Part shown: piece after piece, positions 2,747-56,642 of the stretch
Numbering within the stretch: position 1 is the stretch's first letter
Layout: the number at the start of each line of letters is the position of its first letter
Source: a phage
Length of the DNA stretch: 64,000 nucleotides
NCBI GenBank assembly: GCA_008273105.1
Contig: GCA_008273105.1_4080.1
Direction: 5' to 3' (one strand)
Made by a program: the position numbers and the translations under genes
The notes under the pieces: model-generated
Seen by the model: only the letters and a program-made list of their open reading frames with translations
Databases searched by the model: none
Told to the model about the DNA's origin: nothing

Positions 2747-3289
2747 TTAAGAAAGCATACGTAACAGTTGGTCGCGTTGCTCTGGACTTAATTTTTGTAG
2801 AGCATCAGGGATACTGGAACCTTGTGCTTTTGGTTGTTCTTGTTGTGCTGGTTGCTCAGTTGAGGTCGATTGTGATGGTTGTGATTCTGAACTTTCTTCG
2901 CCACCTTGTTGGTCACGGTAGTCATTCATTATATCACGAGCAGCATTTAATAGAGCAGTACCTACATCTTTTGGTGTAAAAGAACGACGAGGATTGTTCC
3001 CTAAATGTTTAATATCAAGATTGTTACCTTTAAAAAACTGTGCCACATCAGCGTAAGGTACTGATGGTTGAGCTTTACCATATTTACGTCCAACATAACG
3101 TTTAAACTCTGCCCATAAGCGGTTGGCTTCAGCACCAACTTCTTGTGCACCTTGTTCAATCTGTCCACTACCAAAAAAGCCTTTTACTTTTCCTTTTGCA
3201 CTATCAACTGCACTTTGTGAACGACTATAAGGACGAGCTTCATTTAACTCATTGTCTTCATAATCTAACATTTCATTAAGTATACTCAT
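2747..3289 (-). CDS. hypothetical protein
   Basis: 180-aa ORF in co-oriented array. Confidence 0.5.
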   Translation of the reverse strand: MSILNEMLDYEDNELNEARPYSRSQSAVDSAKGKVKGFFGSGQIEQGAQEVGAEANRLWAEFKRYVGRKYGKAQPSVPYADVAQFFKGNNLDIKHLGNNPRRSFTPKDVGTALLNAARDIMNDYRDQQGGEESSESQPSQSTSTEQPAQQEQPKAQGSSIPDALQKLSPEQRDQLLRMLS

Positions 3290-3292
3290 GTG

Positions 3293-3829
3293 TTAATCCT
3301 TTTTACCAAAACCAGCACTCATATATTGAGAGTATTTATTGTCTTTTTTCGATGCTTCAATTGCATCATCAACGGCAGTGTTTGCACGTTGTTGTCCAGC
3401 TAAGTCATAACTGTCTTCTGGTTTACCAAAATCCACTCCAATAACTGGTTCATCAACATCATCAAAATCGATATCATCTTCCAAATCAGTCATTTCAATT
3501 TGACGAGGTTCATCTTTACTACGAACACGAATCAATGCTTCTGTCATGCTTAGTAAATTGCCAATTTCATACATTAGTACATTTGATTGAACACCACGAT
3601 GACATTTAAAGTCAAACATCCAAATTTCACCACAATCTAATTCATAGAAATCTAATGGTTTTTCCATAAAAATTGTTTTCTTTAGTGCTCCAATTTCAAA
3701 CGCATCATAGCGATCCATTAGTCGCTGTGTTACTTTACTAAGTTGCTCAGGTGTTGGTTCAACTGCAAACTTAACTCGGTATTCATAAACTGGTTTCTTT
3801 TCAGTTAGGATTTGTTGTAATCTATTCAT
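3293..3829 (-). CDS. hypothetical protein
   Basis: 178-aa ORF in co-oriented array. Confidence 0.5.
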   Translation of the reverse strand: MNRLQQILTEKKPVYEYRVKFAVEPTPEQLSKVTQRLMDRYDAFEIGALKKTIFMEKPLDFYELDCGEIWMFDFKCHRGVQSNVLMYEIGNLLSMTEALIRVRSKDEPRQIEMTDLEDDIDFDDVDEPVIGVDFGKPEDSYDLAGQQRANTAVDDAIEASKKDNKYSQYMSAGFGKKD

Positions 3830-3856: not shown

Positions 3857-5964
<2,108 letters not shown>

Positions 5965-51226: not shown

Positions 51227-52666
51227 TTACATATTTTCTTCAGCAAATTCTGCAAGTGGTGAACGAACAACACCTTCTAGTTCGATGACACGACAACCTG
51301 CCCAATCTTTAAACTTCTCAGTTACATATGTCAAACCACTGTTAACAGGACTAATAAACTTACTGTCAATCTGACTCAAGTTACCCATAATTACTACTTT
51401 ACAGTTTAATCCTGCTCGTGTCAAGATTGTTTTAGCTTGTGCAGGTGTAATGTTTTGGAATTCATCAACTACTAGAATAGTGTTGGTGAATGAACGTCCA
51501 CGTACAAAGTTTAGTGCTTTAAATTGAATAACATTACGTTTCATAATCTCTTCAATACTACCTTGAGGGTTAGCATCATCTTTATGAAGAAACTCTAACG
51601 CGTCAATTGCGGCTCCACAGAATGGAATCACTTTTTCTGCTTCTGAACCTGGCAAGAAACCAATATCTTCAAACTGTGAGTCTTGAGTTTTAGAGAAGAT
51701 GATTCGGTCGTATTTACGTTTTTCCAGTACTAATTCTAATGCAGTAGCAATCGTAATTAGTGTTTTACCAGTACCAGCAGAACCTAGCAGTACTGTTAGA
51801 TGTACATCAGGATCGAGAATACTGTTGATGGCGAGTGCTTGTTGGATATTCTTTGCTTTAATATCCCATACTTTAGCACGTAAAGCTACTGATTGTCCAA
51901 TATCTTGGAATACCAAAATATCTTCTGGTGTTAGTGTTCCATCATCTTCCTCAATTGCTGATTGACCTTCGTACACAAATAATACGTCTGCATCATCATA
52001 TAGATAATCACCGATGCATAGATTTTGTGGAAGCAAATGTTCAATCAAGCTTTTAGAAATGTAATGATACAAACGACGACCAACTTGTTCGGATTGAATA
52101 TTAGTATTGGTTAAGTTGCTATATACTTCCCAAAAATTAATTTCCAAATGGTGTTGACCAATGTGAATCAAATCACTATCACCAATAACAATATCATGGC
52201 GATAATCTTGTACCTCGACACCATAACTTAGTGCTTTGATACGCATGTTGATATCACGAGTTACCAGTACTGATTCTGTTGCTAAAGCTACCAGAATGAT
52301 TTTATCATCAGGTACTGTGCTTTTGAGAAGGGTTTGAACTTTCTCTTCTGAACCTTTAGTACGAATTAGTGCTTCAGCTTCTTCGTTTGTAATAACAAAC
52401 AATTTGCTATCAGGATTCATATTGGTATGAACATCAGCAATATTAACACCAGTACTACTAATCTCATCATGTGATGCATCTGCAATAATTGCTTCAATGT
52501 TACGAATAGCAACACGAGCATCGCGTGAAACATCTACATTACGACTCTTAATTGAATCCAATTCTTCCAGTACTGTAAATGGTAGAATGATTGCAGCACC
52601 ATCAAAAGCAATAGATGCATTAGGGTCAGATAGTAGTACGTTTGTGTCAATTGTATATTTTTTCAT
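51227..52666 (-). CDS. phoH: PhoH-like ATPase with N-terminal PIN domain (YlaK-type)
   Basis: Walker A LLGSAGTGKT in PhoH-like C-terminal half; N-terminal PIN-like acidic residues. Confidence 0.8.
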   Translation of the reverse strand: MKKYTIDTNVLLSDPNASIAFDGAAIILPFTVLEELDSIKSRNVDVSRDARVAIRNIEAIIADASHDEISSTGVNIADVHTNMNPDSKLFVITNEEAEALIRTKGSEEKVQTLLKSTVPDDKIILVALATESVLVTRDINMRIKALSYGVEVQDYRHDIVIGDSDLIHIGQHHLEINFWEVYSNLTNTNIQSEQVGRRLYHYISKSLIEHLLPQNLCIGDYLYDDADVLFVYEGQSAIEEDDGTLTPEDILVFQDIGQSVALRAKVWDIKAKNIQQALAINSILDPDVHLTVLLGSAGTGKTLITIATALELVLEKRKYDRIIFSKTQDSQFEDIGFLPGSEAEKVIPFCGAAIDALEFLHKDDANPQGSIEEIMKRNVIQFKALNFVRGRSFTNTILVVDEFQNITPAQAKTILTRAGLNCKVVIMGNLSQIDSKFISPVNSGLTYVTEKFKDWAGCRVIELEGVVRSPLAEFAEENM

Positions 52667-52726: not shown

Positions 52727-53029
52727 TTACATATTTGGTTCGTATTCAACATAGCAACGTGAACCTCGAACCTTTTCTTCCCAGCACTCCTGGTAAACAA
52801 GTTGACCAATTGAAACTGGTTCTCTTGATAGTCCATTACGTACTTCACCACTTTGGGTTTTATACATAAATGAACATTTGGACTCGCTACATTGTCCTAA
52901 ACTAACAACTTCTGCGGTATTGTAGTGAATGTTGGTACGCTTAGTGTTCTCGTGATACTGTCCGAACCAAAGAACTCCTGCACCTAACAGAACAGTACAA
53001 ATAAGACTTTTGATGTGTGTTTGAATCAT
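52727..53029 (-). CDS. small secreted/membrane Cys-containing protein
   Basis: 100 aa, N-terminal hydrophobic signal-like segment. Confidence 0.5.
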   Translation of the reverse strand: MIQTHIKSLICTVLLGAGVLWFGQYHENTKRTNIHYNTAEVVSLGQCSESKCSFMYKTQSGEVRNGLSREPVSIGQLVYQECWEEKVRGSRCYVEYEPNM

Positions 53030-53346
53030 AATGAGTTAAATCCATTGTTTAAGTATGTTTCAATATTAATTTTACCAACAGGATTACTACTGTGAACAAA
53101 GTACTCAAACGGTTCTTTAATATTATTATCAAACATATAATCAATAAGAAACTTAGCAAAAGAATATCCAGTCTTTTCGTCTTCGCTCACATCACCCAAG
53201 TCATGGTCGAATGATACAAATGCTGGAATTCCATTTTCAATAACATATTCACATGCACTTTTAAAGTCACGACATACCACCATATCTTGGTTTGGATAAT
53301 ATAGATTTGCATCACGAATATCATCCAAAAACATTGAGTAAGACAT
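53026..53346 (-). CDS. hypothetical protein
   Basis: 106-aa ORF. Confidence 0.5.
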   Translation of the reverse strand: MSYSMFLDDIRDANLYYPNQDMVVCRDFKSACEYVIENGIPAFVSFDHDLGDVSEDEKTGYSFAKFLIDYMFDNNIKEPFEYFVHSSNPVGKINIETYLNNGFNSL

Positions 53347-53355
53347 GTTAAACTC

Positions 53356-53907
53356 CTATAGATAACTAATTAGTAAGTTTTCTTTTTGAACCAGATACTC
53401 CAATTCTTGTTTTGCTGTACCGATGAAGTTCTGTGTCATAAGATTATTATATCCCGCTTCTCGATTTTGTCCCTTAGAATAACGCGAAATATGACATAAA
53501 TTTACACCAGCAACTTCTGCACTTGCATGTTTAGCATTAGTGTATCCATCTCTAATGTGTTTCAACTCGTCATAGGTTACTTCATAGCTAAAACTGTGAC
53601 TGTTTGCACCTGGGTAAATTTCAAAAGTTTTGAGTGGTCGAAGATGGGAAACAAAAATATTGTAATCCATTTCTTCTTGAACTTCACGACGCAACGCATC
53701 TTCTAGTGAGATATCAGTACTTTCTACGGTTCCACCACATCCACCAAGAAGACCATCCCATCGTAATTGCAGTAATACTAAATTTACTTCTGGTATATCA
53801 TTCAACTCATAGTTTTTGTAAGGGTTGCATTTTCTTGCAAAGAAATAACAAAATACAAAATTTGCACGTGTGCCATATTCACCAAAGGGAACTTCTTTAA
53901 CACTCAT
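53356..53907 (-). CDS. Nudix-like hydrolase (non-canonical spacing)
   Basis: GGCGGTVE...DALRREVQEE: REVxEE core present but the following Gly is absent and spacing is longer. Confidence 0.45.
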   Translation of the reverse strand: MSVKEVPFGEYGTRANFVFCYFFARKCNPYKNYELNDIPEVNLVLLQLRWDGLLGGCGGTVESTDISLEDALRREVQEEMDYNIFVSHLRPLKTFEIYPGANSHSFSYEVTYDELKHIRDGYTNAKHASAEVAGVNLCHISRYSKGQNREAGYNNLMTQNFIGTAKQELEYLVQKENLLISYL

Positions 53908-54662
53908 TTCATACGTTCCTTAATTATAGTCTCTAGATGCGGTATTGCTTTGGTTGCTGGCTTGATAACTTTTTCATTAAACAAAAAATCATTATCATTT
54001 TTACGAATGTTAACATTAACACTATAACATGGTAATGCTGCTGCTAATCTCGACCATACCAGTACTGTATCGCTACTACCAATTACAATAACTGTATCAT
54101 TTTCATTAAGAGATTTCAACACATTATTTCGTTCTTCGTAAATTGGTAAGCGAATACCATCAACATAACGATGATATTCTCCAATCATTACTACATTTGG
54201 TTTGGCAAAAACATCATGTTTTGGTATGTATGGTTCGTATCCGCAGTTAATAACATTATAATCATCAGAATTGATACTATAATTTTCAATAACTTCACAC
54301 AAGTTTCCATGAAGTTTAAGCTCATGACCACCAATACGAGTATAAAGATCGTCCATGTTAGAAGTCATATGAAGGAAGCAATCACCATATTGATCTTCTA
54401 ACGATTTTATAAAATAATGCATTGCATTTGGTTCGCATTGTCCCAATTTTACACGTAATGTATTATAGAAAGAATGAACAACATGATATTTTGTAGTTAA
54501 ACTAGCAATGTTACATACATCATTAATTTTAAATGTATCCCACAAACCATCATCAAATCGAAAAGGTTCCATACCACTTTCAACAGAAAGTCCTGCACCT
54601 GATATAATCAGTAATCGCTTTTTACCTTCATTGCTTATAAATTTTTCTGATATCATATTCAA
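53904..54662 (-). CDS. SIR2-family (sirtuin-like) NAD-dependent protein
   Basis: ISGAGLSVESGMEPFR, TSNMDDLY...LHG (catalytic His), KPNVVMIGE, VIGSSDTV match recalled CobB/Sir2 blocks. Confidence 0.75.
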   Translation of the reverse strand: MNMISEKFISNEGKKRLLIISGAGLSVESGMEPFRFDDGLWDTFKINDVCNIASLTTKYHVVHSFYNTLRVKLGQCEPNAMHYFIKSLEDQYGDCFLHMTSNMDDLYTRIGGHELKLHGNLCEVIENYSINSDDYNVINCGYEPYIPKHDVFAKPNVVMIGEYHRYVDGIRLPIYEERNNVLKSLNENDTVIVIGSSDTVLVWSRLAAALPCYSVNVNIRKNDNDFLFNEKVIKPATKAIPHLETIIKERMK

Positions 54663-54665
54663 TCC

Positions 54666-54860
54666 TTATAAAAAAACAATTAAATATATTGATAATAACA
54701 GAATGATTCCAATATGATAGGCATACATAAAATTATTATCTTTGTGATAACCATTGGATTTCAAGTCCCTATATAAGCATTTAGCATTGTTATAAATTAC
54801 AACAATAGAAAAAACTATAAAAAAACTCAAAACCCATTCATAAATTGTGTATGCCATCAT
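54666..54860 (-). CDS. small membrane protein
   Basis: 64 aa, two hydrophobic helices. Confidence 0.4.
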   Translation of the reverse strand: MMAYTIYEWVLSFFIVFSIVVIYNNAKCLYRDLKSNGYHKDNNFMYAYHIGIILLLSIYLIVFL

Positions 54861-54887: not shown

Positions 54888-55481
54888 TTAATATTTTAAA
54901 ACATCAAACTCTTCGCTTACGCTTGTTACATTATCACTAACAATTTTAAAAATTGATTTGATACGTTCGTGTAGTGGTTTTTTAGATTCGTTCTCAACTT
55001 CAATATATGCTTGCATTGCTGCAATTGCATGATATGTCCCACTACCTACTGCGGTAATTCTTGTTTTAGGTTGTAGTACTGAAAAGTCTTCTTGAACTTC
55101 ATAGATTGTATGATTGTGGAGAATGATAAATTGTCCACCACCTACATCTTGTGATGCATCTCGTGCACCCCATTCTTCTTTAAACATTTGACGAATGATT
55201 GGAATAACTTTAAGAACCAAATATTGTGAAAATGTTTGACTAGCATCTTGTTCAGGTAAATTAAGGTTATAATTTAACAACTGACCCATACGAAATGATG
55301 TAGTATAACCCAATGCCATTACTTCTTTAGTTCTAGTTAGTCCATCATCATGTAACTTGATAAATTCTTTCTCGAATACCTTTGGCTCAGTTTGAACAGT
55401 TTTTGTAAATCCATTGCTTCCTAACTTATCCCCAGCAATAAAAGAACTTACTCCGTCAGTGTGTGCAATAATACAGGTCAT
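54888..55481 (-). CDS. HslV/proteasome-like Ntn hydrolase
   Basis: From internal Met: MTCIIAHTDGVSSFIAGD... and V(L)QP...ITAVGSGTYHAIAAMQA align with recalled HslV; GGAG RBS and ATGA overlap support start at 55481. Confidence 0.6.
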   Translation of the reverse strand: MTCIIAHTDGVSSFIAGDKLGSNGFTKTVQTEPKVFEKEFIKLHDDGLTRTKEVMALGYTTSFRMGQLLNYNLNLPEQDASQTFSQYLVLKVIPIIRQMFKEEWGARDASQDVGGGQFIILHNHTIYEVQEDFSVLQPKTRITAVGSGTYHAIAAMQAYIEVENESKKPLHERIKSIFKIVSDNVTSVSEEFDVLKY

Positions 55482-55738
55482 AAAATAGCTCCAATTGCAA
55501 ATAATGTTGTGTATAAGATATAAATTAGTGCTCCTAACAACATTAGGCACACCAAGTATGAAGTTGATAGTACATAATAAATTATTGCTTCGAATTTTGA
55601 ATTGAACTTCATTGTAGTTGGATCAATAAAGCCATTACGATAATCTTTGTAAATGAAAACTGTTAGAAAAATAACTGTAGCATACATTACTACAGTAGCA
55701 TAAAAAATAATAGATGTCAAGTTTTGGATGTTTGTCAT
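55478..55738 (-). CDS. small multi-helix membrane protein
   Basis: 86 aa, three hydrophobic segments. Confidence 0.45.
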   Translation of the reverse strand: MTNIQNLTSIIFYATVVMYATVIFLTVFIYKDYRNGFIDPTTMKFNSKFEAIIYYVLSTSYLVCLMLLGALIYILYTTLFAIGAIL

Positions 55739-55808: not shown

Positions 55809-56417
55809 TTATTGTTTGACTGAACCGTAAAAAACCAGTTCTGGTTTTGTTAATATTACAACATCTTCACCACGAGAACGACTAACTCTAAATAGAACTT
55901 CTGGTGGGATTCCATTTGCTGCATATAGTGAAAAAAGGAAACCTACCTTTGTTGCCATTTCTTCGGTAAAAGTTGATAGCTGTCTTACAGACACAAATGA
56001 ATTATCACCATCAGTAACATTACTTTTAATCGAAATGTTATGAAGACCCAGTACTGAGCGATTTGTCATATATCGCTTTTCGGGAGATACACTAAAGAAT
56101 ACCACAGTACATGCTGAATTGCAATACCTAGAAACAATTAAATTTATCCCATTGTCTCTAACAAAGTTTGCCATTCGAATACCTGCATCAAAATCACCAC
56201 CAGGAGATGTAATTGTGATGGTATCATAGTGTTCTTTATCATACAACTCTATCATTCTCTTGAGTGACCCATCTGTAATATCTGATATGAAATATACATT
56301 TCGGGTTTCAGGATTATACTTTATCACATTTTTACTTTCAATACCAGCACTGGCTGGAAAATTTATTAACAATAGAAACATCGCTGCTTGTATCACTTCA
56401 AGCCATAGTCTTTTCAT
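55809..56417 (-). CDS. secreted ClpP/crotonase-fold serine-protease-like protein
   Basis: Signal peptide MKRLWLEVIQAAMFLLLINFPASA; ITSPGGDFDAGIRM, NSAC and LGLHN align with ClpP active-site blocks; GAGGA RBS before Met6. Confidence 0.55.
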   Translation of the reverse strand: MKRLWLEVIQAAMFLLLINFPASAGIESKNVIKYNPETRNVYFISDITDGSLKRMIELYDKEHYDTITITSPGGDFDAGIRMANFVRDNGINLIVSRYCNSACTVVFFSVSPEKRYMTNRSVLGLHNISIKSNVTDGDNSFVSVRQLSTFTEEMATKVGFLFSLYAANGIPPEVLFRVSRSRGEDVVILTKPELVFYGSVKQ

Positions 56418-56432
56418 ATAACAAGTCCTCAA

Positions 56433-56642
56433 TTTTGTTTAGGAAGATATAAATAATATAGTACTTAAACACTTAAGTCAAACTTTTTCTGTACTTAACT
56501 CAAATTTTTAAAAATAAAACTTAAGGTGTACAGTTTATAACAGATCATATCATACCACTGATGTTTTGTCAACTAGTTCATGGTGCATCTGATGTAAAAA
56601 ACAAATATATTTCATACTTATATTTAAAAAAGGAAATAAAAT
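56433..56642. promoter_or_regulatory. divergent AT-rich intergenic region, including plus-strand TATAAATA at 56448-56455
   Basis: 210-bp gap between divergently oriented genes; AGGAA RBS before plus-strand ATG. Confidence 0.4.

Follow-up and report, generated by a model that had tools for sequence, protein, structure and literature searches.

Phage-borne proteasome homologues were already catalogued in 2021. Fuchs, Alva and Lupas listed 22 new proteasome homologues and described group I families that radiate from BPH and HslV and are found in phages, namely PPH, AAH, and CPH; they found neither an AAA+ partner nor an informative gene context for the new homologues (PMC8665760). Papers on jumbo-phage genomes only remark on 'HslV without HslU'. 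Here we describe a gene of this kind in a 64,000-nucleotide stretch of phage DNA (GenBank assembly GCA_008273105.1, contig GCA_008273105.1_4080.1), which is referred to as the window. The coding sequence (CDS) occupies positions 54888..55481 of the minus strand, has its stop codon at 54888-54890, and is predicted to encode a proteasome-type (family T1-like) N-terminal nucleophile (Ntn) hydrolase of 197 residues. We consider it probable, at roughly 80%, that the gene product is a non-structural phage enzyme of the proteasome β/HslV/BPH superfamily.

The 3-kb stretch around the gene aligns over its full length, with 99.7% identity, to Asteriusvirus jumbo coliphages (PBECO4, phAPEC6, vB_EcoM_G17, slurp01, and others). 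It matches 39 phage records, including 30 Escherichia-phage records. Position 54888 of the window equals position 67372 of PBECO4, and the window corresponds to about 12.5-76.5 kb of that genome. Public records give the gene the same bounds, as PBECO4 gp096 ('peptidase HslV family'), 121Q gp475 ('protease (ClpYQ-like)'), and phAPEC6 gp345c, with an annotated CDS length of 594-597 nt. Records from 103 contigs contain the identical 197-residue product, and PHROG 1040 'peptidase HslV family' matches it at 4e-24. Across Asteriusvirus-like phages, the gene is 63-100% identical and lies inside a conserved gene array. Public records thus already give the gene with its start and family name, and finding them here is correct and ordinary. 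Public annotation gains nothing from the gene call and the family assignment, as gp096, gp475, and PHROG 1040 have both. The remaining interest lies in the biological role of an abundant phage-associated clade with thousands of sequence clusters and hundreds of phage genomes. A copy from an easily grown coliphage, with a perfectly conserved active site, would be a convenient entry point to the biology of this clade.

Fold, catalytic residues, and family

The 197-residue product translated from the ATG at 55481 reads MTCIIAHTDGVSSFIAGD...ITAVGSGTYHAIAAMQA, and its N-terminal stretch can be given as MTCIIAHTDGVSSFIAGDKLGSNG...ITAVGSGTYHAIAAMQA. The earlier note on this DNA, which was made from the sequence alone, had quoted the protein from this internal Met, and the quotation matches the translation exactly. 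Searches with the single sequence were uninformative. The only Pfam match was the connectase N-terminal domain at a non-significant E of 0.088, and the PDB search returned recoverin and HslV at E = 0.2-1, with nothing significant. A profile of homologues was therefore needed. Run on the PDB, the profile of 39 homologues matches E. coli HslV over the full length at E = 8.6e-8, with M-T placed on M-T1, D on D17, K on K33, and GSG on GSG. The hhalign probability against E. coli HslV is 94.6%. The AlphaFold2 model computed on the alignment has a predicted local distance difference test (pLDDT) score of 92.6 and a predicted template modeling score of 0.88. It displays the αββα sandwich of T1-type Ntn hydrolases with proteasome-subunit topology, and its strands and helices, including H1-H4, follow the order of a proteasome subunit. 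The top Foldseek hits of the model are HslV structures at E = 2e-10. An HslV/proteasome-like Ntn hydrolase is what the earlier note had proposed, with profile comparison and structure prediction against HslV as the check; the profile match and the recovery of an HslV-type fold by hhalign and AlphaFold2/Foldseek bear the proposal out.

We then inspected residue conservation on 150 representatives with a mutual identity of no more than 50%. In mature numbering, the residues of interest are Thr1, Asp17, Lys33, Gly57 (putative oxyanion hole), and G145-S146-G147. T2, D18, K34, and G146 of the unprocessed protein, which correspond to mature Thr1, Asp17, Lys33, and the first Gly of the G-x-G loop, are present in all 150 representatives, and G58 (mature Gly57) in 149. 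At the middle position of G-x-G, 73 of them have Cys and 64 have Ser, the residue also present here. Judged from the alignment, this pattern is that of an active enzyme and not of a scaffold. The fold and the catalytic residues together support a proteasome/HslV-type N-terminal-threonine hydrolase. Mature position 2 is Cys in 143 of the 150 representatives. Cys2 was considered as an alternative nucleophile and rejected, for it is Ala in EPS7 and some other residue than Cys in 7 of 150, while the Thr is invariant.

Two regions of the model deserve description. The loop after H2 (residues 105-117), located at the 'pore loop' position, has a pLDDT of 67-78 and is the sole low-confidence part. A 14-residue insertion lies within the region of residues about 37-57 (55311..55373, minus strand) and extends the β-hairpin between the strands carrying Lys33 and Gly57, at the S3/S4 site. 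The spacing between K34 and G58 is hence 23 residues here versus 9 in 137 of the 150 representatives, and the insertion is limited in the alignment to the Asteriusvirus-like clade. It is modeled as strands 35-43 and 50-59 with a pLDDT of 94-96.

The relatives are numerous. An exhaustive search with a hidden Markov model gave 2,229 clusters at E ≤ 1e-30 and 6,063 at 1e-10. By tblastn, relatives were found in 197 phage records, including T5-like Epseptimavirus and phages of Aeromonas, Vibrio, Psychrobacter, and Moorella. Genomes of bacterial species contain 390 loci, concentrated in Azospirillum and other α-proteobacteria, Polyangiaceae, Paenibacillus, and Patescibacteria, where NCBI names the members 'hypothetical' or 'Ntn hydrolase family protein'. 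In BFVD, 36 viral structure clusters match at E ≤ 0.001. The family has a median length of 185 residues and the signature motif G-x-T-T-S-F-R-M-G-Q. The protein is a member of a large clade of its own, separate from HslV and present in phages and bacteria. The view that a phage-borne proteasome-like subunit is uncommon does not hold, given the 197 phage records, PHROG 1040, and the 36 BFVD clusters. Some metagenomic relatives of 250-390 residues carry strongly acidic C-terminal extensions of 120-200 residues; these have no Pfam match and give no domain-fusion clue. Aeromonas phage 2L372X (NC_048770.1) has two adjacent genes, one at locus 4001..4552 and the next across the record origin, both named 'peptidase HslV family', and the pair could form a hetero-oligomeric ring. 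Two HslV genes and no HslU were also reported for pSal-SNUABM-04 (PMC7823757).

Several observations weigh against reading the protein as a classical enzyme of this superfamily. The NCBIfam equivalog models for HslV score it far under their cut-offs (NF003964, 19.9 bits versus 137; TIGR03692, 18.9 versus 157.75), and its identity to HslV structures is 15-20%. The Pfam Proteasome model PF00227 gives no match to the protein. The Ser of the G-S-G loop is replaced by Cys in about half of the relatives. The hairpin insertion sits at S3/S4, the site of the connectase specificity element, and could alter assembly or substrate access. Moreover, the loci in EPS7, Aeromonas phage 2L372X, Vibrio phage henriette, and Moorella phage MTATph1 share no neighbor family that hints at a pathway, and a literature search turned up no experimental study of any clade member. 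By the scores of the HslV models, the protein is HslV-like without being an HslV orthologue. Of the alignment with HslV claimed by the earlier note, the likeness including the N-terminal Thr thus stands, but orthology does not.

Translation start

In the list of longest open reading frames (ORFs), the gene appears as a minus-strand ORF at 54888..55550 with a GTG start and 220 residues, and the ATG at 55481 is internal to it. The ATG (55479..55481, minus strand) overlaps the TGA stop of the upstream ORF as ATGA at 55478-55481. A Shine-Dalgarno (SD)-like GGAG at 55489..55492 on the same strand lies 7 nt upstream of the ATG in the context AATTGGAGCTATTTTATGACC, and is also present in 121Q and phAPEC6. 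No SD or comparable signal was found ahead of the GTG at 55550. The ATGA overlap and the GGAG are an arrangement typical of translational coupling, here with the preceding 86-residue ORF. The 23-codon extension (55482..55550, minus strand) is the 3' end of this upstream membrane-protein ORF read out of frame, and lies outside the gene.

Comparison with the relatives points to the same ATG. All 39 aligned homologues start with M-T-C, as do 77 of the 80 bacterial loci and 138 of the 150 representatives, and a direct Met/Val-Thr start is found in 145 of the representatives. The 23-residue extension is absent from every homologue aligned. In Turkey5, EPS7, Aeromonas 2L372X, Vibrio henriette, and Moorella MTATph1, the frame before the M-T start is closed by a stop at a distance of 0-11 codons (1 codon in Turkey5, whose protein is 63.5% identical). 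No alternative start codon lies between this stop and the M-T start in these five phages, and each has its own purine-rich SD before the M-T start. The long form is therefore impossible in the distant phages. Four independent lines establish that the true start is ATG 55481 and not GTG 55550. The earlier note had favored the internal Met, which the coupled GGAG/ATGA arrangement, the M-T-C starts, and the upstream stops confirm. It had also called the upstream start mis-called; this is true of the longest-ORF track, but the public records checked already call the 197-residue form, and the 220-residue version is found in none of the database hits that gave the 103 contigs. The supposed mis-call is therefore an artefact of listing longest ORFs.

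The same evidence bears on the possibility that translation begins at GTG 55550 and yields a 220-residue precursor, whose 23-residue propeptide would be cut off autocatalytically to expose the Thr, as in 20S β subunits. The frame is indeed open back to the GTG in the phage described here, in 121Q, and in phAPEC6, and many proteasome β subunits have propeptides (PMC8665760). However, the SD is missing before the GTG whereas GGAG stands before the ATG, the extension is the out-of-frame tail of another ORF, and the frame is closed upstream of the M-T start in Turkey5 and in the EPS7, Aeromonas, Vibrio, and Moorella phages. Position -1 before the catalytic Thr of proteasomes is usually Gly, and it would be Met in this precursor. 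Besides, Fuchs et al. report propeptides only in 20S β and HslV (PMC8665760). A GTG-initiated propeptide is very improbable and close to refuted.

A true case of a mis-called start, with the error running the other way from that suspected in the window, was seen in Moorella phage MTATph1 (OR602862.1). The annotation of its CDS0188 ('peptidase HslV family') begins at locus position 3043, but homology runs from TTG-ACT-TGT (N-formylmethionine-Thr-Cys) at locus 3001 (3001..3558), which is preceded by an SD. The catalytic Thr is therefore missing from the deposited protein.

Gene neighborhood, partner search, and mode of action

The gene is part of an array of co-directional genes on the minus strand. 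They encode, in order, a ClpP-like protein, an 86-residue protein with two transmembrane segments, the peptidase, a 64-residue protein with two transmembrane segments, Sir2, a Nudt16-like Nudix protein, a cREC_REC protein, a small annotated membrane protein, and a PIN-PhoH fusion. The 86-residue ORF (55478..55738, minus strand, two predicted transmembrane segments) is upstream of the peptidase and ATGA-coupled to it; the 64-residue ORF (54666..54860, minus strand, likewise with two predicted transmembrane segments) is downstream. With the ClpP-like gene further upstream, the setting among membrane proteins and protease-like genes is as the earlier note had described. The array is conserved in 121Q and Turkey5, but none of the neighboring genes in it is conserved in distant phages. 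The 86-residue ORF is conserved in these two phages and not in distant ones, and homologues of neither small ORF were detectable beside the peptidase in distant phages. Both are unannotated in the PBECO4 RefSeq record, while the upstream one is annotated in 121Q and Turkey5, and the downstream one in Turkey5. In Turkey5, a gene on the opposite strand lies between the 86-residue ORF and the peptidase, and translational coupling is therefore not obligatory.

The ClpP-like protein (55809..56432, minus strand) matches PHROG 26024 'protease' at 3.9e-119, and scores 17.4 bits with Pfam CLP_protease versus a cut-off of 20.2. It may be membrane-anchored or exported, because it has an N-terminal hydrophobic, signal-like segment. 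Its public start is ATG 56417 and its longest-ORF start TTG 56432, which is another over-long mechanical start. The consecutive genes for Sir2 (PF02146, 3.7e-20), the Nudt16-like Nudix protein (PF22327, 8e-19), and cREC_REC (PF20274, 1.5e-22; a 'cyclic-phosphate processing receiver' domain) span 53026..54662 on the minus strand. The trio looks like a module processing nucleotides derived from nicotinamide adenine dinucleotide (NAD) and adenosine diphosphate (ADP)-ribose, possibly with a role in counter-defence. The PIN-PhoH fusion (51227..52666, minus strand) has 479 residues, and its phAPEC6 counterpart is gp341c. Mass spectrometry detected this protein in purified phAPEC6 virions (PMC7247149), an unusual place for a PhoH-like ATPase.

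Neighbors elsewhere gave no further lead. For 80 bacterial loci, automated neighbor clustering was swamped by spurious ORFs, the loci being GC-rich. Spot checks of bacterial loci found a DJ-1/PfpI protein in Azospirillum (24.8 bits versus a cut-off of 26.6) and an acyltransferase in Polyangiaceae, with no coherent pathway. PADLOC gave no match to a defence-system protein. As to expression, the best σ70-like promoter match (TTGACA-17-TG-TATGAT, 11/12, with an extended -10 element) is at 56544..56572 on the minus strand, in the intergenic stretch that heads the array. It is a candidate, for the total of promoter-like sites does not exceed shuffled controls. The EPS7 homologue sits among nucleotide-metabolism genes. 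This context and the candidate promoter suggest early expression. From this neighborhood, the mass spectrometry of phAPEC6 virions lists gp341c and gp347, and the peptidase gp345c and the ClpP-like gp346c were undetected (PMC7247149). The peptidase is therefore very probably intracellular and non-structural.

We searched for a partner unfoldase over the whole 348-kb PBECO4 genome (NC_027364.1) with tblastn and phmmer. This check for an HslU-like partner, suggested by the earlier note, found no HslU; the only weak match is the ClpA-like gp539. A second proteasome-like paralogue was found neither in the window nor in the PBECO4 genome. The gp539 protein is a ClpA-like two-ring Hsp100 of 762 residues (PBECO4 330788..333076) that matches TIGR02639 over its full length with 754.7 bits and has a 'SIGM' tripeptide at the ClpP-docking loop. 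The loop type points to ClpP as the likely partner of gp539 and not to an HslV-like core. A ClpS-like adaptor, gp457, is encoded at PBECO4 249684..250229; both genes are far outside the window. As a dedicated partner of the peptidase, gp539 is unsupported, with its ClpP-type loop and a distance of about 264 kb, and the annotation of the Aeromonas and Vibrio phages examined shows no such gene next to the homologues. In the phage collection as a whole, 164 records have HslU/ClpX-like genes, and only 4 of them are Escherichia phages (versus 30 that match the region). With HslU missing from PBECO4 and such genes rare in Escherichia phages, the peptidase counts as an orphan, in the same way as BPH and Anbu. 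The ClpA-like, ClpS-like, and ClpP-like proteins and the HslV-like gene make up a phage-borne proteolysis toolkit, which suggests that jumbo phages invest in proteolysis of their own.

From these data a mode of action can be proposed. Translation would start at ATG 55481, and host deformylase and methionine aminopeptidase would take off the N-formylmethionine, which a Thr at residue 2 allows; E. coli HslV (MTTIV...) is matured by the same Met removal. The Thr would then be residue 1, and its hydroxyl and free α-amine would form a proteasome-type catalytic center with Asp17 and Lys33, while Gly57 and the G-S-G loop would shape the oxyanion hole and the substrate pocket. By analogy with the closest structural relatives, the protein would most likely form homo-oligomeric rings that stack and enclose the active sites, and would cleave unfolded polypeptides in the infected cytoplasm. 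Having no dedicated HslU-type unfoldase, it may work without a partner, as BPH and Anbu do, or might conceivably draw on factors of the host. Its role might be the turnover of host proteins or defence proteins, or the recycling of amino acids. We infer that Met is removed, that rings assemble, that the protein is an active peptidase, and that it is expressed early. The classical proteasome mechanism is the best-supported one, based on the fold and the invariant residues.

Two other readings of function have to be weighed against this mechanism. In one, the gene is a host-captured HslV orthologue that serves as proteolytic core of HslUV by using host HslU. Of the solved structures, HslV matches the sequence best, public records say HslV family or ClpYQ-like, and the E. 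coli host has HslU while the phage has none. An orthologue, however, would hardly score so far below the equivalog cut-offs at 15-20% identity, and the clade has a signature of its own (MTC..., TTSFRMGQ), is present in bacterial chromosomes as a separate gene left hypothetical by NCBI, and has relatives in phages of very different hosts. This capture is unlikely. In the other, the protein is a sequence-specific peptidase or transpeptidase (connectase-like), or an amidase with non-protein substrates, that works as a monomer or small oligomer. The insertion of the Asteriusvirus-like clade is at the same S3/S4 site as the connectase lid, but it is a β-hairpin instead of two helices, and 137 of the 150 relatives lack it. 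The model has all four of the helices H1-H4, which make the ring contacts in proteasomes. Ntn hydrolases are functionally versatile, and connectase is an example of a proteasome homologue that acts as a monomeric ligase (PMC8665760). The sole Pfam match is the non-significant one to the connectase N-terminal domain. The neighboring Sir2, Nudt16-like Nudix, and cREC_REC proteins would process NAD/ADP-ribose-type nucleotides, but this neighborhood is unconserved outside Asteriusvirus-like phages. We regard such an activity as quite improbable. Together with the GTG-initiated propeptide, each of these three alternatives to a classical, ATG-initiated proteasome-type peptidase is unlikely.

A broader role for the clade is conceivable, though doubtful. 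Its members might be unfoldase-independent compartmental proteases or hijackers of host HslU, expressed early by phages such as Asteriusvirus and Epseptimavirus to destroy specific host proteins such as defence or stress-response factors, with the Asteriusvirus-specific hairpin tuning substrate access. If true, a viral proteasome homologue would for the first time have a defined role in infection.

Comparison with described proteasome homologues

As in HslV (ClpQ), the N-terminal Thr of the phage protein would be exposed by mere Met removal, and D17, K33, and G-S-G are in register. In contrast to HslV, the phage protein falls far under the HslV cut-offs at its low identity, has its own motifs (C2 and TTSFRMGQ), and comes from a phage that encodes no HslU. 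BPH (Betaproteobacteria proteasome homolog; PDB 5ovs/5ovu; PMC5777263) is likewise an orphan homologue without a partner unfoldase, and has a flexible loop after H2 at the pore-loop position, which in the phage protein comprises residues 105-117. The two are 16% identical, and BPH is bacterial whereas the present clade is phage-rich. BPH is a tetradecamer with a highly acidic cavity; the phage protein is known from its sequence and a monomer model.

Among the other families, PPH is also a phage-borne group I proteasome homologue, but it has about 140 residues and lacks H2, whereas the phage protein has 197 residues and H2 at residues 84-104. Membership in PPH was rejected, the protein being too long and having H2. 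Connectase carries its specificity lid at S3/S4, where the phage protein has its insertion; the lid consists of two helices, while the insert is a β-hairpin. The phage protein has neither the two-helix lid at S3/S4 nor the loss of the first helix pair that characterize connectases.

The closest described group is AAH. AAH proteins are compact, with about 180 residues, H1-H4, no propeptide, and Thr1/Asp17/Lys33. Besides α-proteobacteria, Firmicutes, and other bacteria, many phage genomes are reported to encode them, with no AAA+ partner found. The phage protein shares this compact group I plan, with H1-H4 and without a propeptide or S12/H5, and its relatives are distributed in α-proteobacteria, Firmicutes, and phages, being concentrated in Azospirillum and other α-proteobacteria, Paenibacillus, and phages. 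The clade hence probably corresponds to AAH as defined by Fuchs et al. 2021, an assignment by size, architecture, and distribution, with AAH known by description; the AAH representative WP_035979212 is not among the accessions looked up for the relatives in Azospirillum, Gluconacetobacter, Devosia, and Paenibacillus. What the Asteriusvirus clade adds to the AAH plan is the 14-residue hairpin insertion.
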